A stretch of 64,000 nt of DNA, taken from NCBI GenBank assembly GCA_017991775.1, contig JAGOPV010000004.1, forward strand, positions 2,847 through 66,846, written 5' to 3'. The notes beneath the pieces were generated by a model. It had not been told where the DNA came from and ran no database searches. It saw only the letters and a list, made by a program, of their open reading frames with translations. Below, in pieces: positions 11,929 through 48,063 of the stretch; position 1 is the first letter of the stretch, and the number at the start of each line of letters is the position of its first letter. The position numbers were made by a program, and so were the translations under genes. Origin of the DNA: Candidatus Levyibacteriota bacterium. GTDB taxonomy: Bacteria > Patescibacteriota > Microgenomatia > Levybacterales > UBA12049.

Positions 11929-12021
11929 CACTTCTTCCCCAATTTCAAATACTACCAATACTAAATGGCAAGGCCATTTGATATTTGACATTTTATATTT
12001 GCCATTGGATATTAAATACAT

Positions 12022-12924
12022 ATGAACGATTATCGCTATACACAGATTGAGGAGCTTGATAAAAAAATCCAAGAAACCCAAGTTCTCCTCCAAGACCCTG
12101 ACATGCAAGAACTTGCTCAAGAAGAGTTAGATACTCTTTTGGCGCAGAAAAAAGTTATCGAGGACAGCTTAGCACAAAGCAATGCTTCATCACTTCAAGA
12201 TGACGTTGATGATCGCAATGTTATTATCGAGGTCAAAGGTGCAGCTGGTGGAGACGAAGCGAATATCTTTGCAGAAGAATTAAAGCGTATGTATATCCGC
12301 TTCGCAGAAACGCATAATCTCAAAGCTGAGATGATCGAAGAGAACGTCTTAAAGCTCTCTGGAAAAGGCGCCTACAATACTCTCAAATATGAATCCGGTG
12401 TACACCGTGTTCAACGTACTCCAAAGACTGAAAAGAAAGGGCGCATCCACACGTCAACTGTCACAGTTTCTGTTCTGCCAGAGCTCGAGGATATCGACCT
12501 CCATATCAGCCCAGATGACATTAGTTTTGAAGCATTTCGAAGTGGTGGGCATGGTGGACAAAACGTTAACAAGGTCTCAACAGCAGTTCGACTCATTCAT
12601 ATTCCAACAGGCCTTGCTGTAGTCTCCTCAGCTGAAAGATCACAGATCCAAAATAGAGAAATCGCCATGACACTACTTCGTGCAAGACTATGGGAAAATG
12701 AAGTTGAAAAACAACAAGCTGAGTACTCGTCATTAAAAGCCAATCAGGTTGGACATGGTATGAGAAATGAAAAAATTAAGACATATAACTTTCCTCAAGA
12801 CAGATTAACTGACCATAGAATTGGCAAATCATGGGGCAATCTGCCAGCAATCATGGATGGTGCAATTCCTGATGAACACCCAACAGATGATTCAGTTGCA
12901 CAAGATGTTGAGGACGAGAACTAA
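12022..12924 (+). CDS. prfA: Peptide chain release factor 1 (short N-terminus)
   Basis: GGQ motif (SGGHGGQNVNK) and RF1-type PxT tripeptide region RVQRTPKTEKKGRIHTS (RF2 would have SPF). Confidence 0.85.
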   Translation: MNDYRYTQIEELDKKIQETQVLLQDPDMQELAQEELDTLLAQKKVIEDSLAQSNASSLQDDVDDRNVIIEVKGAAGGDEANIFAEELKRMYIRFAETHNLKAEMIEENVLKLSGKGAYNTLKYESGVHRVQRTPKTEKKGRIHTSTVTVSVLPELEDIDLHISPDDISFEAFRSGGHGGQNVNKVSTAVRLIHIPTGLAVVSSAERSQIQNREIAMTLLRARLWENEVEKQQAEYSSLKANQVGHGMRNEKIKTYNFPQDRLTDHRIGKSWGNLPAIMDGAIPDEHPTDDSVAQDVEDEN

Positions 12925-12993
12925 TGTCAGATATCCAACTCAAATAGATCTCACCCATTTGAAATTTGTCATTTGATATTAGCCATTTGATAT

Positions 12994-14685
12994 TTATGTT
13001 AGATACTGGAGGTCTTTTTCTTTATACTTCTCAATCATCTCAAGATCGTCATCATTAACCAAGATCTTGGCAAGATGATGTCCACCAGCCAAGTGTGGCA
13101 AGACTACATAATCTGCTCCCTTTTTATAGAGTAACTTTGCATCCATTGGCTCATATGCCATAACGACAATCTTCGCTCTCTTATTGAAATGCTTTAGACC
13201 TTCAATAAGGAGAAGATTGTCTTCAAGATCTGGGACCGTTGAGATAACCATTTTCGCCTTCTCAAACCCCACTCTTTCTTGAATATCAGGATCGGCGATA
13301 TCACCAAAGACAGCCACGACCCCATCCTTTTTAAGTTTAGTGATGACATCGGGATCAAAGTCTACCACGAGTACCTGCTCCTTACTCTGTTTAAGTGCAT
13401 GAAGCACACTTTTACCCATTTGATGCCCACCAATCAAAATAACATGCTTATCAAATCCGCTAAGATCATCTTCTGACTCTTCCTGGCGATGAGCAGTCTT
13501 TCGCAACTCAAGAAATGAAAGCCTTCCTCCAATAACTTTATAAATTTTATTTGTATGCGAGATAAGATACGTTGAGATAGTAAAAGTGATCATGCTCACA
13601 ATAATCATAATTGTGACAACTTCACTTGGAATAATCCCTTTGCTCTGACCAAGAAATAATATGATCAAACTAAACTCAGATATCTGTGCCATTGTGACTC
13701 CTGCAAAAAAGGAAGTTCGTTTTCTAAATCCAGACAAGCCGGCAATGATCATTACAATCAGTGGTTTGACAACAATCGCAAATGCAGAGAGAATAAGCGC
13801 TGGGAAGAGCGCACTCAGGAGATTGGTAAATGCCATCTCAATCCCCAACATCACAAAAAATATCGTCATGAAAAAGTCTCTAAGTGCTTTCATGCGAGCG
13901 ATGATTTGGTAATTTTCATGCGTATTCGCGAGCGCAAGTCCAGCTAAGAATCCACCAATCTCAATAGAAAAACCAATTGGCTTTAGTGTGACAATTGCTG
14001 TGACTGCAAAAACCCAAGCAAGACTAAAAAGAAAGAGTATCTCACCAGAGTCTGAGAAATTATGAAGTATTTTCGGAAAGACGTATTTACTACAAACTAA
14101 GATCCACCCAACCAAGACGAGTAATTTTAGAAGAACGAAGCCAACTGCAATTCCAATCTCAAATGCACCCCCGCCATGAAGTCCAGTCATAAAAATGATC
14201 GCAAGAATCGCAAAAAAGTCTTGCATCAAAAGTACACCAATCGCTAATTTACCATGAAGACTATTAAGATCTTTCTTATCAGAGAGCAGCTTCACAATAA
14301 TGATCGTACTTGAGAATGAAAGCGCTAAGGCCACATAGAGCGAGATCTGGGCGCTAAATCCAAGTAAGGTCGCCACGCCAAACCCGAGACCTAGTGTAGT
14401 CACCATCTGCAAGCTGCCAATAACTAGAGCGGTCTTCCCGATTGATTTGAGTTCGTGTAGCTTTAACTCTAGACCTAACAAAAAGAGTAAGAGCGTGATA
14501 CCCAGCTGCCCCAATGTCTGAAGTGACTCAGGATTCTTGAGATGGATAATGCCTAATGGACCAAGAATAATGCCTGTAAGAATATATGCAATTATAGATG
14601 GCTGACGGAGATAACGAAGTAAAATTGAGAGGAATGCTGCAACGATAATAACAATCGAAAGCTCAAAGAAAACACTGTCCATCAA
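12994..14685 (-). CDS. Cation:proton antiporter (CPA2/KefB-like) with C-terminal RCK/TrkA-N domain
   Basis: About 12 TM helices followed by Rossmann-like LIGGHQMGKSV TrkA-N domain. Confidence 0.8.
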   Translation of the reverse strand: MMDSVFFELSIVIIVAAFLSILLRYLRQPSIIAYILTGIILGPLGIIHLKNPESLQTLGQLGITLLLFLLGLELKLHELKSIGKTALVIGSLQMVTTLGLGFGVATLLGFSAQISLYVALALSFSSTIIIVKLLSDKKDLNSLHGKLAIGVLLMQDFFAILAIIFMTGLHGGGAFEIGIAVGFVLLKLLVLVGWILVCSKYVFPKILHNFSDSGEILFLFSLAWVFAVTAIVTLKPIGFSIEIGGFLAGLALANTHENYQIIARMKALRDFFMTIFFVMLGIEMAFTNLLSALFPALILSAFAIVVKPLIVMIIAGLSGFRKRTSFFAGVTMAQISEFSLIILFLGQSKGIIPSEVVTIMIIVSMITFTISTYLISHTNKIYKVIGGRLSFLELRKTAHRQEESEDDLSGFDKHVILIGGHQMGKSVLHALKQSKEQVLVVDFDPDVITKLKKDGVVAVFGDIADPDIQERVGFEKAKMVISTVPDLEDNLLLIEGLKHFNKRAKIVVMAYEPMDAKLLYKKGADYVVLPHLAGGHHLAKILVNDDDLEMIEKYKEKDLQYLT

Positions 14686-41579: not shown

Positions 41580-42005
41580 CTAGTCGTCGCAAAGACAACT
41601 TAATACGATGATCGCATTCTCGACCGCCTTTGGCGGGATACCTTTTTTAGAGGCTACTTGAACCAGCTCTCTCCTTAACTTAATCTCAAGAGCGACTAGA
41701 TGGCTTACGCCATCAGGACTGAGCTCATAGAGCCAAATTCTCCCGTCTGAATCGTCTTGGAACCGGGAGATAAGCCCTTCCTCCAAAAGTCGCCCCACGA
41801 TTTTTGGGCACTGCTGGCCTGTCATTGACTTGAGGGCCATCTCTTTTACGGTACGAGCCCCAAGTTCGATTGCGACAAGCACATCAAGCTCGTCACTTTT
41901 CTTAGCGTTGATCAGAATTTGGGAGAGCATGCCCCCAATCGCACGACTGGACCTTGGGATTCTATTTCTCAGTGTGCTTGAACGATCAACCATGGATACC
42001 TCCAA
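41580..42005 (-). CDS. MarR-like winged-helix regulator (GC-rich island)
   Basis: wHTH pattern; local GC clearly above genome background. Confidence 0.55.
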   Translation of the reverse strand: MEVSMVDRSSTLRNRIPRSSRAIGGMLSQILINAKKSDELDVLVAIELGARTVKEMALKSMTGQQCPKIVGRLLEEGLISRFQDDSDGRIWLYELSPDGVSHLVALEIKLRRELVQVASKKGIPPKAVENAIIVLSCLCDD

Positions 42006-42129: not shown

Positions 42130-42546
42130 TTACTCCCGACTGGAAAAATAGTCCAGTGAAATTGTATTGTTTGACGAGTTCTGTTTCGACAGCCACTCAT
42201 CTTTGATGTCCAGGAATGTTCCAGAAATACGCTGCAAAAGCTGTAGCCCATCATCAGATAGGCATATTGTGACCTCAACGTCACGCTCAATGTGCCTACA
42301 AACCAGCCGTAGGTCCTCGAGCCTACCAACTGCAGCTGACACTGCTGACCTTGTTGACATCAGGTCACCGGCAAGCCCGATGAACGTAGCACGATCGCTC
42401 CTATAAACTTTGAGCATCACTAAAAGCTCAAAGAAGGTCAAAGGTTCATCGACTTTCCAGAGAAGATAGTTGAAGAATTGCAACAATAGTCTTTCGACCA
42501 TCATCATATTCTCCAACGAATTAAGCCTTTCCTTGCAAGTGTCCAT
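42130..42546 (-). CDS. MarR-like winged-helix regulator (GC-rich island)
   Basis: wHTH pattern; GC-rich. Confidence 0.55.
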   Translation of the reverse strand: MDTCKERLNSLENMMMVERLLLQFFNYLLWKVDEPLTFFELLVMLKVYRSDRATFIGLAGDLMSTRSAVSAAVGRLEDLRLVCRHIERDVEVTICLSDDGLQLLQRISGTFLDIKDEWLSKQNSSNNTISLDYFSSRE

Positions 42547-43544: not shown

Positions 43545-43645
43545 GAGGCTATTATACCACGAGATGGGATTACAAACTAAAATTAATGTCATCCTGAACT
43601 TGTTTCAGGATCTCAGTTAGATGCTGAAATAATTTCAGCATGACA

Positions 43646-45004
43646 CTATTTTTTAATAAATGTGAGGAAGTCGTCCTGCATTTTTTGCATTTTTTCTTTC
43701 TCCATATTCGCAATCATCAGCATCGCTTCATCAGATCGCTTAAGAAAATCACGATCAACTTCTGCGATATCTGGATTGACTGTCAGAGCAATGTTATTCA
43801 TCCCCATCAATCTTAGACCATTCAAATTTCTCAAGCGAGATAGCGCGACATACCCTTGTCCTGGCACAAAAGAACGGGAGAGATCGACCTCAGCCGCGTC
43901 CAACGACATACCTTGTGACTTATGCACTGTGATAGCCCAAGCAAGCCGAAGTGGGATCTGGCTGATCGCAGCCACAACATTTCCTTGTCCTGAGCCTGTC
44001 GCAGGATCTTCTTTAACTTCCCAACTCGAAGCATCAACGATGATCTCTGCCCCATCAAAAGTACGGACCTTTGGGTGTCCTTCTTTATCAAAACCTATTA
44101 CTTCTCCCAGTGTACCGTTGACATACCCTACATCCCAATTGTTCTTCACGAACATCACCTGGGCTCCAACTTTTAAGGACAACCTTTCTGGAGCTAGGCA
44201 GGTTTTTCGTAAAGTTTCAACGATCTTGGGACTACCTCGACCTACCATTAAGAAGTCATGTGACTCGCCCTTAAGTTCATCAAGTTCTTTTTTATTAATT
44301 GCATCAACATCTGCATTATGTGTGAACAATTTTGTCGGCTTAGAATACCCTTCTGGATTTTTATCAAGACGCTCTGAGAGAACTTCAACAGTATCTTCAT
44401 TAACCTCTCCAGATCGAATATCACTGAGAACTCGCAAAAAGGATCTATCGCTTTGCCTGAACTGCTCATCTAGATAGCAAATCTGTAGACGCATGTTATT
44501 CCAGACTTCTGCATCAATAACATAGGAAGGCTTCTCACCACCTTTCACGACAGGAGGAAGTTGAAAAAAATCCCCACACATGATTACTTGCATCCCGCCA
44601 AAAGGCTCATAATTTCGCTTAAAGCCTCTACATATTGCATCCACAATATCGAGCTGGTGTGCATGAAGCATCGAGACTTCGTCAATGATCAGGACCTTAG
44701 CAAGCAAAAATCTTTTTCGAAGGTATGACCTCTTCATAAGATCATGGATTTCAGGAGTAGTGATCGTGTCTTTTATCCCCATCCCCGACCAGCTATGAAT
44801 AGTCGTCCCACCCATGTGAGTTGCTGCAATTCCAGTTGAGGCTGTAATACCAACGCTCACTTTTTGCTGCTTAAGATAATCTATATATTGATTGAGCAGA
44901 TGTGTTTTGCCACTTCCAGCAGGACCTGTGAGATAGACATTATGCCCTAGCTTGAGCAGATTGAGGGCATCTTTTTGTGTCATAGGAGAACAGTAGTATA
45001 GCAT
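43646..45004 (-). CDS. Pif1/RecD-family SF1 helicase
   Basis: Walker A GPAGSGKTH, motif II IIDEVSM, Pif1-like GDFFQLPPV; start ambiguous because 8-nt repeat supplies ATGs in all frames (ORF track 45052). Confidence 0.8.
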   Translation of the reverse strand: MLYYCSPMTQKDALNLLKLGHNVYLTGPAGSGKTHLLNQYIDYLKQQKVSVGITASTGIAATHMGGTTIHSWSGMGIKDTITTPEIHDLMKRSYLRKRFLLAKVLIIDEVSMLHAHQLDIVDAICRGFKRNYEPFGGMQVIMCGDFFQLPPVVKGGEKPSYVIDAEVWNNMRLQICYLDEQFRQSDRSFLRVLSDIRSGEVNEDTVEVLSERLDKNPEGYSKPTKLFTHNADVDAINKKELDELKGESHDFLMVGRGSPKIVETLRKTCLAPERLSLKVGAQVMFVKNNWDVGYVNGTLGEVIGFDKEGHPKVRTFDGAEIIVDASSWEVKEDPATGSGQGNVVAAISQIPLRLAWAITVHKSQGMSLDAAEVDLSRSFVPGQGYVALSRLRNLNGLRLMGMNNIALTVNPDIAEVDRDFLKRSDEAMLMIANMEKEKMQKMQDDFLTFIKK

Positions 45005-45059
45005 GACTGCATGACTGCATGACTGCATGACTGCATGACTGCATGACTGCATGACTGCA
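45001..45059. repeat. 8-nt tandem repeat (GCATGACT) x about 7.4 overlapping the helicase start region
   Basis: Read directly; each unit carries an ATG on the coding (minus) strand. Confidence 0.9.
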
Positions 45060-45064
45060 AAATT

Positions 45065-45607
45065 CTAGTCGTCGAAGTCTTTGTAGACTTTTGAGCCCAC
45101 GAGAGTTTTTTTCTTACCATCAGAACTTGGGATCAATTCTTCAATAATTTGTGAGTAACGAAATGGGTTGTGAATCATGTACATATCCTGATATTTTGTA
45201 CCTCGAAAATCAGATAGCGAGACAGTACCAAAGTTGAACATCCTACCATACGCACTTTGATAGACCTCGACCATCCGCACATGACTCAAGAGAAATTTTT
45301 CCTCCTTTTTAAAAAAGACTCCCCTGCGATGATAAAGTGTCGTCGATGTAATTTCATAATATTCATTCAGCCACTGCAAAACGATATAGATAGATAACGA
45401 CATTTTAATAAGAAGAAATGTAATAAATATTGGAATGGTGAAGACCGTAAATTCAAAACCTGCAAAGGTGTCGCGAATCATAGCCAGCGATGAGAAAGAA
45501 AAGACTGCAAGTCCTCCAGACATGATTTCAATAAATAGTAATTTCGCGAGAAGAAGAGAGATGCTTGTTCTAACATTGACGTGTGTGACTTGTATCGGCT
45601 TCTCCAT
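45065..45607 (-). CDS. bPH_2/YdbT-like membrane protein (bacterial PH domain)
   Basis: Two TM helices + PH-like domain pattern. Confidence 0.55.
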   Translation of the reverse strand: MEKPIQVTHVNVRTSISLLLAKLLFIEIMSGGLAVFSFSSLAMIRDTFAGFEFTVFTIPIFITFLLIKMSLSIYIVLQWLNEYYEITSTTLYHRRGVFFKKEEKFLLSHVRMVEVYQSAYGRMFNFGTVSLSDFRGTKYQDMYMIHNPFRYSQIIEELIPSSDGKKKTLVGSKVYKDFDD

Positions 45608-45614
45608 TTTTTAT

Positions 45615-46328
45615 TTACTGCGCAATCTTCATGTGATACTTAAGACTATAGATCCAATCCTCTTCATTACCAGGACTTTGCAACTTCTGTTCCAAGAGCC
45701 ACTCTAAATATGGCCTATCTGTCATGACTATCTCCTCAATTTTTTTACCTCTATGCTTACCAAAATTCATCATTGTATAGAGAATTGGGTCAAGCGAAAT
45801 CCTCAGCATTTCCTCGACAGCTTTTTCATGCGTACCCTGCTGCTCCATAACTTTTGCGTAAAGTCGCTTGAAGAGTGCTTCAAGTACGATTACATCATCT
45901 TTCGCTTCATGCGCTGAAGCCTCTACATCAAGATCAAGATAATAGCGAAGATACTGCATGTTGTACTCAGGGATCTTGCTCTCAGGATCCATCGCTCGAG
46001 CCAACTTGAGCGTGCAGATAAATCGTGGCACCTCGATATCCTCGTGGGCAAGCATTGTGATATCAAAAACAGCATTATGCGCAACGAGAATTTTTTCTTT
46101 CAGTAAAAGTGATAGGTCCTTGCTCATAGCACTACCTGCAAAGGGTTCTTTATCATCTACCATTCTATTGGTGACGTGCGTGATGCTCTGAGACTTAATA
46201 GAGATTGGAAGTGGTGGTTTGAAATACGCGTCCTTTATCTCTGTCCCAATTTTGTAGCAGACTTGAAATAGCCTATCTTCTAGCAACTGATTGCCAGTCG
46301 TTTCGGTATCCAAAAACATGAAATCATC
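45615..46328 (-). CDS. DEDD 3'-5' exonuclease (DnaQ/epsilon-like)
   Basis: FLDTETTG (Exo I), HNAVFD (Exo II), HEAKDD (Exo III); start set at MDDFMFLD. Confidence 0.75.
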   Translation of the reverse strand, partial: DDFMFLDTETTGNQLLEDRLFQVCYKIGTEIKDAYFKPPLPISIKSQSITHVTNRMVDDKEPFAGSAMSKDLSLLLKEKILVAHNAVFDITMLAHEDIEVPRFICTLKLARAMDPESKIPEYNMQYLRYYLDLDVEASAHEAKDDVIVLEALFKRLYAKVMEQQGTHEKAVEEMLRISLDPILYTMMNFGKHRGKKIEEIVMTDRPYLEWLLEQKLQSPGNEEDWIYSLKYHMKIAQ

Positions 46329-46456
46329 CATGAGCACATTATAGCAGGCCAGCAAATTGCAGGATAGCATGCGAGTAAACCAAGGGTATAAAAAACTCAG
46401 GTTAATAATTACTCCATCTGCTTGCCCGCCCGCCTGCTTTACGCTATCGTTAATGT

Positions 46457-47509
46457 ATGTCCACTACTCCGATAGATGAGTTAAAAAAAGAACTTCGTAA
46501 AGAAGAGCTTGTCTACGCCATGGACACCAAGCCTGGCTTGATGCGCCAAAAGATTCAAAAGTCATATGCCTACTATGACCTTGATGGTAAAAAGGTCACG
46601 GATAAAAAGACTAAGGATAGGATTGATAGCCTAGGCATCCCTCCAGCTTGGGAAAATGTCTGGATATCCCCCCTCACCAATGGCCACCTACAAGCAACTG
46701 GATTTGATGAAAAAGGTCGTAAGCAGTACATCTACCATCCGTCATGGATCAAAATTTCCCAGGAAAATAAATTCGCAAAAATGGTCGACTTTGGCATGAA
46801 CCTTCCTAAAATCAGAGGTAAAGTTGCATACGACATGCGAAATGATGAATTGAGTCGTAAAAAGATAATCGCGACTGTTATCTGGCTACTCGAGCATACC
46901 TTTATCAGAATTGGTAATGAGCAATATTCAAAAGAAAATGCATCCTTTGGACTCACGACTCTTCGAAATCGCCATGCAAAGGTACGTGGTAAGGAAGTCA
47001 CTTTTCACTTCACGGGCAAAAGTGGTGTTGAGAATATCCTCACTTTCTCAAATCCAACTGTCGCCAAAACTATAAAGAAATGTATTGAGCTTCCAGGCTT
47101 TGAACTTTTTCAGTACATCGATGATGATGGCACCAAGCACACGATCGAGTCCTCAGATGTAAATGAATTCTTAAAAGAGATCACCGATGACACTTTTACT
47201 GCTAAAGACTTTAGAACTTGGGGCGCGACCAATCTATCAGCCGATATTTTCTATGACACGGGGGATCCCGAAGATTCGAAAACACTGAAGAAAAACGTTA
47301 AGGAGACTATCAAACAGGTCTCAGAGCATCTTAATAACACTGTATCAGTCTGTCGTAGCTACTACATCCACCCAAGCGTGATACAGACTTATGAGAAGAA
47401 GATCCTCTTACCCTTTATGAAACGCCATGATGGGAAAAAGTCTGATATCAATGGGCTCTCATGGAAAGAATCAGCCCTGATCAAACTTCTTCGCGAACAC
47501 CCCCTTTAA
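46457..47509 (+). CDS. Type IB DNA topoisomerase (bacterial TopIB, poxvirus-like)
   Basis: GRKQYIYH, FTGKSG, KDFRTWGAT and catalytic-Tyr motif RSYYIHP characteristic of TopIB. Confidence 0.85.
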   Translation: MSTTPIDELKKELRKEELVYAMDTKPGLMRQKIQKSYAYYDLDGKKVTDKKTKDRIDSLGIPPAWENVWISPLTNGHLQATGFDEKGRKQYIYHPSWIKISQENKFAKMVDFGMNLPKIRGKVAYDMRNDELSRKKIIATVIWLLEHTFIRIGNEQYSKENASFGLTTLRNRHAKVRGKEVTFHFTGKSGVENILTFSNPTVAKTIKKCIELPGFELFQYIDDDGTKHTIESSDVNEFLKEITDDTFTAKDFRTWGATNLSADIFYDTGDPEDSKTLKKNVKETIKQVSEHLNNTVSVCRSYYIHPSVIQTYEKKILLPFMKRHDGKKSDINGLSWKESALIKLLREHPL

Positions 47510-47510
47510 C

Positions 47511-47555
47511 TAGGAACTAGGAACTAGGAACTAGGAACTAGGAACTAGGAACTAG
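47511..47555. repeat. 7-nt tandem repeat (TAGGAAC) x about 6.4
   Basis: Read directly, begins 2 nt after topIB stop. Confidence 0.9.
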
Positions 47556-47646: not shown

Positions 47647-48063
47647 ATGTCAACTTCAACAATGGACACCGAGATCGTTGCTCCATCTGGACGAGTCTTC
47701 ACCAGCACATTGCTCGACCAAATCGCCGAAGCAGTTTGGCAACGCTTTCAGGCAAAAGCTGGTCAGGACGAGCTTCTCGACTTGCATTTCGCTGACTTCC
47801 CCGTCGGGAAGAATCTGCGTGATCCTATCGTCACAAGCGAGAAGATCGCATGGTACGTCGCACGTGGATTCACTGCCAACATGGCAAGGCTGCTGGTAAG
47901 AAGTGATATTTCACCTCAGTTTCTTTACACAGCAACACCGGAGCAAATTATTGGCAGGAAAGGTATTGGCGTGAACTCTCTTGAGGAAATCCTTGAGAGA
48001 AGAAAACAGCTTGCACCACAAGTTTGGATCAAACAACAATTGTTGTCTTTAGCAGCGCGATAG
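47647..48063 (+). CDS. Hypothetical protein with helix-hairpin-helix-like motif (GC-rich island)
   Basis: IGRKGIGVNSLEEILERR resembles HhH; elevated GC. Confidence 0.45.
   Translation: MSTSTMDTEIVAPSGRVFTSTLLDQIAEAVWQRFQAKAGQDELLDLHFADFPVGKNLRDPIVTSEKIAWYVARGFTANMARLLVRSDISPQFLYTATPEQIIGRKGIGVNSLEEILERRKQLAPQVWIKQQLLSLAAR

Follow-up and report, generated by a model that had tools for sequence, protein, structure and literature searches.

The window examined here, a 64-kb stretch of DNA from an uncultivated Levybacteria genome (Candidatus Levyibacteriota, contig JAGOPV010000004.1), carries on its minus strand a gene for a PIF1-family helicase, pif1, preceded by a gene for a bPH_2 membrane protein (bPH). 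The spacer between the two genes holds a perfect tandem array of an 8-nt unit, which is the subject of this analysis. The features in question, with the evidence for each in brackets, are as follows.

43646..44983, minus strand: pif1, PIF1-family SF1B helicase of 445 aa, starting MTQKDALN (Pfam, homologues, invariant MTQ)
44984..44994, minus strand: pyrimidine-rich 11-nt spacer ACTGTTCTCCT, with no Shine-Dalgarno (SD) sequence (sequence)
44995..45003, minus strand: TGCTATACT, extended -10-like promoter box, TGn + TATACT (conservation, positional enrichment)
45001..45059, minus strand: perfect octanucleotide microsatellite (Tandem Repeats Finder [TRF], raw sequence, shuffles, alleles in other samples)

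TRF returned the array with the consensus GCATGACT on the plus strand, a period of 8, 7.4 copies, 100% matches, and a score of 118; on the gene (minus) strand its 59 nt read (TGCAGTCA)x7 followed by TGC. The two-unit 16-mer matched seven times inside the array and nowhere else in the window, and shuffled sequence gave a mean of 0.78 matches and reached seven in 0 of 100 shuffles. Outside the array, the 8-mers of the octamer occurred in the window at chance level only. The array is far beyond chance, and the perfect 8-nt repeat that an earlier note on this DNA had reported at 45001-45059 was confirmed by TRF, by the raw sequence, and by the shuffles.

Read on the minus strand, the order of elements is the bPH stop codon TAG (45067-45065), AATTT, (TGCAGTCA)x7, TGC, TATACT, ACTGTTCTCCT, and the ATG at 44983, followed by ACA CAA. 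The earlier note had placed the array between the upstream stop and the Walker A motif of the helicase, which is GPAGSGKT at 44926-44903; the array occupies, more exactly, the 81-nt spacer that runs from the bPH stop to the conserved pif1 ATG at 44983. The array follows the stop codon at 5 nt, and its end precedes the ATG by 18 nt.

The array has a G+C content of 51% and no TA dinucleotide at all, so it contains no -10-like hexamer that could act as a cryptic -10. On the coding strand each unit carries an ATG, and there is no stop codon in any frame of the array. The earlier note was right that the unit length is no multiple of 3 and that an in-frame start is available at any copy number: the last of these ATGs (45004) always shares the helicase frame, and an array of 7 units puts the first (45052) in that frame too. 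There was no SD-like sequence in or before the array. Its predicted secondary structure was not significant against shuffles (z = +0.47 for RNA and -0.75 for DNA), and no Rfam family matched it. The z-scores and the Rfam null result ruled out a role of the array as a hairpin, a terminator, or a structured RNA.

Copy-number alleles and origin of the array

Further alleles were found by an exact look-up of the bPH protein, which returned five contigs from different samples and pipelines. The alleles, including that of the window, are listed here.

Window allele: 7 units (reference)
L006 (NCBI GCA_020047435.1): 7 units; flanks 99.5% identical to the window
L005 (NCBI GCA_020050275.1): 8 units; flanks 98.7% identical to the window
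L007 (ENA ERZ15185891): 5 units; flanks with 3 mismatches in 1174 nt versus the window
L008 (ENA ERZ28614207): 5 units; flanks with 2 mismatches in 802 nt versus the window
L004 (Logan, k=31): ends inside the array; flank 100% identical, other end at a second simple sequence repeat (SSR) described below

The complete alleles, the window included, thus have 5, 5, 7, 7, and 8 units in flanks that, for the contigs other than the window, are 97.8 to 99.5% identical to it by BLAST; for the 5-unit contigs the flank identity is about 99.7% once the gap due to the repeat length is set aside. The array is polymorphic in copy number between near-identical strains. Both 5-unit contigs, which come from different assemblies, have in common a linked single-nucleotide polymorphism (SNP) in the flank, ACTGTT to ACAGTT, so repeat length partly tracks strain background. 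The check for copy-number heterogeneity among strains that the earlier note had proposed therefore gave, from assemblies, 5, 5, 7, and 8 units where the window has 7, and these alleles support the slipped-strand architecture that it had suspected. A scan of JGI metagenome contigs for the repeat plus its flanks gave no match, the species being absent from that collection. Exact look-ups of the helicase, in both its 445-aa and its 468-aa form, gave no match either, and those of ExoX, topoisomerase IB (TopIB), and a 138-aa neighbor yielded no further complete alleles.

It is hardly credible that the differences in copy number reflect collapse or expansion of the repeat by the assemblers: Logan (k=31) contigs (L004, L108, and L109) do break inside the two SSRs, and alleles of 59 to 67 nt are longer than the k-mer size of some assemblers, but four complete contigs from NCBI and ENA pipelines have the array with unique flanks on either side, and the 43-nt allele is shorter than the usual final k-mers and was recovered from two independent assemblies, each with the linked flank SNP. 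Since five other contigs, of differing sample and pipeline, also have the array, it is not an assembly artifact.

The array was absent from the relatives compared from outside this species-level lineage, namely, from L002, L003, and L190 to L193 (83 to 91% nucleotide identity) and from L001. In the first six, the spacers are 92 to 127 nt long and A/T rich, with two to three tandem TATACT boxes and other small duplications (the lineage-specific AGAATAA x2 and TCTTTAT x2) and no octamer array. Throughout this lineage, the stretch immediately upstream of the pif1 promoter is prone to duplication. The tandem boxes have the form CTTTATACT ... CTTTATACT ... GCTATACT and stand 14 to 16 nt apart (L002, 2275-2340; L003, 445-505; the bPH-pif1 spacers of L190 to L192). 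In L001, which has a helicase of 91% protein identity, the spacer is 35 nt long and has a single proto-unit, CAGCCATGC, directly before TATACT; this proto-unit differs from an array unit by one mismatch. In the window lineage, TGC-AGTCA-TGC forms a 3-nt direct repeat able to seed an 8-nt duplication. Judged by these sequences, the array seems to have expanded recently from DNA in which the TGn of the extended -10 was already present.

When 185,579 species genomes were scanned for three units of the octamer, 98 loci were returned, and none of the 88 of them that were listed came from Patescibacteria. Most of the listed loci were in Bacteroidales metagenome-assembled genomes (MAGs) with degenerate TGCAGTCN arrays; others were in Sodalis, Biostraticola, Burkholderia, and further taxa. 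Because the listed matches lie outside Patescibacteria, the octamer is not a repeat family shared with this genome, and its presence in unrelated taxa represents independent occurrences. Several of the Bacteroidales MAGs (L014, L015, L052, L062, and L082) had many degenerate TGCAGTC[A/G/T] loci, often beside other 7- to 8-nt arrays, and Sodalis, Biostraticola, and Burkholderia had long perfect arrays of the same octamer, of up to 10.6 units.

The pif1 start codon and the box upstream of it

The longest open reading frame (ORF) of the helicase, 43646-45052 on the minus strand, begins in the array and encodes a 468-aa form with 23 extra, repeat-encoded residues. Its Pfam domains, PIF1 (PF05970; E=1e-37, 130 bits, cutoff 25.9) and Pif1_2B (PF21530; E=8e-10, 38.7 bits, cutoff 23.9), start after residue 24, and its homologues are Patescibacteria/Levybacteria proteins named PIF1 family helicase in their sources. 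Residues M24, T25, and Q26 of the long ORF were invariant: all 17 aligned homologues (66 to 92% identity) begin at MTQ, and none has a counterpart of the 23 repeat-encoded residues. Among 8000 scored relatives, the homologue matches span 95% of the long ORF and leave out the N-terminal extension. Because MTQ is invariant and the extension has no counterpart, the conserved start is the ATG at 44983. Automatic gene calls placed the start at the second repeat ATG in L005 (911) and at the last repeat ATG in L007 (915). These repeat-internal calls are an annotation artifact, giving false extensions (MQSCSHAV... and MLYYCSP...) that differ from strain to strain. By this comparison the array lies outside the pif1 coding sequence, and its copy number should leave the protein unchanged. 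Switching by an in-ORF frameshift (ON/OFF) was ruled out, the repeat being outside the conserved frame.

The TGCTATACT box lies 11 nt upstream of the pif1 ATG, and its TGC is the last, partial unit of the array; the leader of the pif1 mRNA is predicted to be very short, about 4 to 5 nt. The arrangement TG[CT]TATACT, then 11 to 12 nt, then ATG was kept in L001, L002, L003, and L190 to L193, the DNA farther upstream not being conserved, and the box itself was kept in all examined relatives, at 83 to 100% identity. A wider survey took in 80 metagenomic Pif1 loci of more distant relationship, and in 57 distinct ones the MTQ/MKQ start could be placed. A TAnnnT box with at least 4 of 6 matches to TATAAT stood 5 to 13 nt before the start in 36 of the 57, 15 of them at exactly 6 nt, where the distribution had a sharp maximum, against 12 in a control window 25 to 33 nt before the start; with the TG extension, the counts were 21 at 5 to 13 nt and 1 in the control window. 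An SD-like motif was present at a single one of the 57 orthologous loci.

The same arrangement recurred elsewhere in the window, where strong -10-like boxes were concentrated 6 to 8 and 12 nt upstream of first ATGs. The start contexts are TGCTATAAT-6-ATG for the exonuclease ExoX (box 46332-46340), TGGTATAAT-6-ATG for the rhodanese (box 43545-43553), and TATCGT-6-ATG for TopIB (box 46448-46456). Many genes of the window have a TATAAT-like box, often TG extended, 6 to 8 or 12 nt before the first ATG and no SD, and the longest version of several ORFs overshoots the likely leaderless start. Other genes, such as that at 47647, have a clear SD of the AAGGAG type. Taken together, these motifs suggest that leaderless mRNAs are widespread in this Levybacteria genome and in the Pif1 genes of Patescibacteria generally. 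The organism appears to mix SD-led and leaderless genes; pif1 would belong to the leaderless or short-leader class, with a promoter of its own, because the box is conserved before the ATG and an SD is almost absent across the 57 loci. We infer from motif conservation and position that TGCTATACT acts as the pif1 promoter.

The only -35-like hexamer, TTGCAG, is at the 5' edge of the array, 6+8(n-1) nt from the -10, that is, at 14 or 22 nt, and a promoter scan found no -35/-10 pair at the array. A switch acting through the spacing between -35 and -10 was ruled out, the spacing being 14 or 22 nt and never 16 to 18.

Possible promoter tuning or neutral slippage, and less likely readings

We favor, with a probability of roughly 0.5, the reading that the array is a recent, slippage-generated octanucleotide microsatellite of the noncoding bPH-pif1 spacer that abuts the extended -10 of pif1 and tunes the gene in a modest, graded way. 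The pif1 mRNA would arise from TGCTATACT and have no leader or a very short one, and the array, at about -13 to -71, would be promoter-upstream DNA and part of neither the mRNA nor the protein. Because every unit ends in TGC, each gain or loss of a unit would restore the TG of the extended -10, and because the array is uniform, the sequence at the -35 position would stay the same; with both of them regenerated, a change in copy number would leave the core promoter intact. Such a change would shift the upstream A/T-rich DNA (the AGAATTT stretch and the end of the exoX-bPH operon) to or from RNA polymerase in 8-bp steps, with a rotation of about a three-quarter turn of the helix at each step. 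The outcome would be a modest, rheostat-like change in pif1 transcription, with no ON/OFF switch and no change in the protein.

Several points weigh against this reading. The promoter was assigned from motif conservation and position only, and the distance from the -10 to the ATG is 11 nt versus a family mode of 6 nt, which makes the exact transcription start site (TSS) uncertain. At 5 or more units, all alleles have the same DNA between -13 and about -55, and the effect on the polymerase is possibly negligible. Only one species-level lineage has the array, and an unrelated SSR 2.5 kb away could reflect a generally slippage-prone genome just as well as locus-specific selection. Finally, the copy numbers come from short-read assemblies, and those of the longer alleles may be off by a unit.

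The neighborhood of pif1 includes the following further features.

45062..45067, minus strand: TAGAAT, weak match to a -10 hexamer, with the bPH stop as part of it and the first repeat ATG (45052) 9 nt farther downstream; not conserved in relatives
45065..45607, minus strand: bPH_2 membrane protein of 180 aa, the upstream gene (Pfam; identical to MBP6882246.1 from a Candidatus Levybacteria bacterium MAG)
45615..46331, minus strand: DEDDh (ExoX/DnaQ-like) exonuclease, first gene of the exoX-bPH pair (Pfam RNase_T + ExoX-like_C; NCBIfam)
47508..47555, plus strand: second perfect microsatellite, (AACTAGG)x6.9 (TRF, sequence)

A bacterial TopIB is placed divergently, and a UPF0176 rhodanese lies downstream of pif1. 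The order ExoX-bPH-Pif1-rhodanese was syntenic in all fetched relatives, and so was TopIB wherever the contig reached far enough; no terminator-like site was found between bPH and pif1. PADLOC gave only partial, generic matches of pif1 to the SF1B core, the best of them (E=2e-16) covering about 140 aa of a 1221-position model, and among the neighbors it found no system matches except a generic DEDDh match and no sign of a defense island. An association of pif1 with a defense system was ruled out on these partial matches and on the conserved synteny with housekeeping genes. The label of an "anti-MGE-type" helicase (MGE, mobile genetic element) that the earlier note had given to the gene is not supported. 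The gene is widely conserved and syntenic in Patescibacteria.

The second SSR begins within the TopIB stop codon, and 18 nt beyond its end comes TTGACT-17-TAAAAT, a promoter-like site of the gene at 47647; k=31 assemblies break inside this SSR. Relatives at 83 to 93% identity also have a heptamer array at this position, with variant units: AACTAGG + AATTAGG (L191, 1-45; L192, 1-38), CTAGGAG (L190, about 1085-1123), and AACTAGG (L108, 1-30). In the sequences compared, the position of this SSR is conserved while its unit evolves. Because the heptamer array holds the same position across relatives, it is older than the octamer array. Elsewhere in the window, two imperfect arrays of one 7/14-nt unit, (C)CATTTGATATTTGA, at 11975-12013 and 12955-12995, flank on both sides a release factor gene (12022-12924, PCRF+RF-1) whose upstream neighbor encodes ribosomal protein L31. 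Downstream of the rhodanese, two small adjacent ORFs (41580-42005 and 42130-42546, minus strand; 141 and 138 aa) had no Pfam match; one of them gave a weak ScpB-like NCBIfam match (E=5e-4), and both are possibly winged-helix proteins.

The main alternative is that the array is a neutral microsatellite, a by-product of slippage tolerated in one of the few noncoding gaps with no meaningful effect on pif1. We regard it as a real possibility that ranks close behind the rheostat-like tuning and is nearly as likely. It agrees with the presence of the array in one species-level lineage only, the relatives at 83 to 91% identity being without it, and with the other small lineage-specific duplications in the spacers of those relatives. 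At 4 or more units, copy number alters neither the core promoter nor the -35-position sequence, and a compact genome confines a non-triplet SSR to the DNA between genes, so that a position near a promoter is expected by default. The second perfect SSR, 2.5 kb away and with a different unit, likewise suits neutrality. The rarity of such arrays in comparable DNA weighs against it. Perfect SSRs of at least 4 copies and at least 24 nt number exactly two in the window, 2.5 kb apart and around a block of DNA metabolism genes, against one in 367 kb of other Patescibacteria Pif1 loci, the unrelated (TGCATG)x6 in L177. Both SSRs of the window, moreover, are immediately upstream of promoter-like elements, and promoter-proximal SSRs alter promoter output in the bacteria in which they were tested (PMC4081817 and PMC2791445).

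An unlikely alternative places the array within a message and makes it a translational relay with three states. Translation would initiate at the first repeat ATG (45052), reached either on a transcript from the weak TAGAAT or by reinitiation after the bPH stop 12 nt upstream, and the frame of the resulting upstream ORF (uORF) would cycle with the copy number n. At n mod 3 = 1 (1, 4, 7, and 10 units) the uORF would be fused in frame to Pif1; at n mod 3 = 2 (2, 5, 8, and 11) it would stop at a TGA that overlaps the pif1 ATG (ATGA), which would permit reinitiation; and at n mod 3 = 0 (3, 6, and 9) it would overrun the pif1 start by about 40 nt and occlude it. The frame arithmetic was verified for 1 to 11 units, TAGAAT is 9 nt before the first repeat ATG, the bPH-pif1 junction has no terminator-like site, and none of the five alleles (5, 5, 7, 7, and 8 units) has n mod 3 = 0. 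That lack is not significant, however, at (2/3)^5 = 0.13, and is weaker still if linked strains are counted once. Two further points weigh against the relay: relatives do not conserve TAGAAT, a match that A/T-rich DNA would give by chance, and a canonical downstream promoter would make normal Pif1 regardless. A broader form of this idea, equally doubtful to us, would make the array the relay device of an organism with leaderless translation, in which only the 5'-proximal or post-termination AUG counts, and would turn the Pif1-ExoX-TopIB block, together with the positionally conserved second SSR, into a set of contingency loci.

Very unlikely is the model of the earlier note, in which the repeat covers the start of the helicase gene and copy number sets the length of an (MQSCSHAV)n extension and the spacing of the ribosome-binding site (RBS). 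The frame is indeed open through the array, with ATG 45004 always in frame and ATG 45052 in frame at 7 units, and gene callers did pick repeat ATGs in L005 and L007. The homologues nevertheless all start at MTQ, and the array-less relatives have the same gene with the same start; the extension is without a counterpart in the 8000 scored relatives, and an SD-like sequence is lacking in and before the array. The conserved -10-like box, being downstream of the array, implies that the array is probably not transcribed from pif1's own promoter. As far as the sequences tell, the start codon is downstream of the repeat, at MTQKDALN, an outcome that the earlier note had itself named as one that would speak against its model.

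Significance and relation to known systems

To our knowledge, almost all known cases of genes tuned or switched by hypermutable repeats come from host-adapted pathogens such as Haemophilus, Neisseria, Campylobacter, and Helicobacter, and most concern genes for surface structures. Here, a strain-polymorphic, non-triplet repeat stands beside a promoter-like box in uncultivated Levybacteria (candidate phyla radiation [CPR]/Patescibacteria), at a conserved DNA helicase gene. If copy number alters pif1 output, repeat-based stochastic regulation would extend to a phylum of tiny genomes with few regulators and to a gene of genome maintenance. There are practical consequences as well, since such arrays break k=31 assemblies and draw gene callers into false N-terminal extensions. 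The apparent leaderless promoters (TGnTAnnnT, 6 to 12 nt before the ATG) in this genome and in the Pif1 genes of Patescibacteria matter for the annotation of start codons.

In the full-text literature we found no paper that combines Patescibacteria with SSR-mediated phase variation and nothing specific on mismatch repair in Patescibacteria or on leaderless mRNA in CPR/Patescibacteria; octanucleotide repeats are rarely mentioned in the phase variation literature, the two subjects occurring together in two papers. Within the literature searched, no such repeat was found described in this phylum or at this kind of gene.

The classical contingency loci with repeats inside the ORF include the tetranucleotide repeats of Haemophilus influenzae lipooligosaccharide (LOS) genes and the polyG tracts of Campylobacter. 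Like these, the present array is a perfect SSR with a unit that is not a multiple of 3 and with a copy number that is polymorphic between strains; unlike them, it lies outside the conserved reading frame, so that no frameshift would turn the protein ON or OFF. The SSR of H. influenzae hmw1A/hmw2A has a unit of 7 bp and resembles the array as a non-triplet, multinucleotide SSR in the 5' region of a gene. As published, hmw expression is graded and not ON/OFF, through a mechanism that involves transcription, structure of the 5' untranslated region (5'-UTR), and mRNA processing by RNase III (PMC12721329). The array here differs in that it is predicted to be upstream of the TSS and has no significant RNA structure.

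Within the CPR, the nearest case found is that of a Gracilibacterium, which has a hypervariable gene with a coding 9-mer (PTD) repeat (Sieber et al. 2019, PMC6851277). That repeat is likewise a short, slippage-prone tandem repeat in a CPR genome, and it fragmented the assembly; unlike the present array, which is noncoding and promoter adjacent, it is coding, triplet compatible, and part of a large protein. In Neisseria meningitidis, a TAAA tract lies upstream of the promoter of nadA, a gene that relies on NadR operators flanking the tract and on IHF (Metruccio et al. 2009, PMC2791445). It too is a multinucleotide SSR, and changes in its copy number affect how distal promoter elements are spaced, as would be the case here. 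The unit is 4 nt there and 8 nt here, and for the array no operators or regulator were identified.

A further parallel is sabA of Helicobacter pylori, where a T-tract next to the -35 acts as a promoter-proximal rheostat (Aberg et al. 2014, PMC4081817). In both cases an intergenic, slippage-prone repeat is directly upstream of core promoter elements, a placement that the array shares by standing immediately upstream of a conserved box that is a putative promoter, and in both its length varies between isolates. A change in length spares the core promoter of sabA and moves the upstream (UP-like) DNA relative to RNA polymerase, and the same would hold for pif1. The differences are that the repeat here has an 8-nt unit instead of being a homopolymer, that it abuts an extended -10 without a recognizable -35, that it precedes the gene of a DNA helicase and not of a surface adhesin, and that it comes from uncultivated, environmental Levybacteria. 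By its position the array belongs to the known class of intergenic, promoter-proximal hypermutable repeats, and the function proposed for it is of the same rheostat-like kind.

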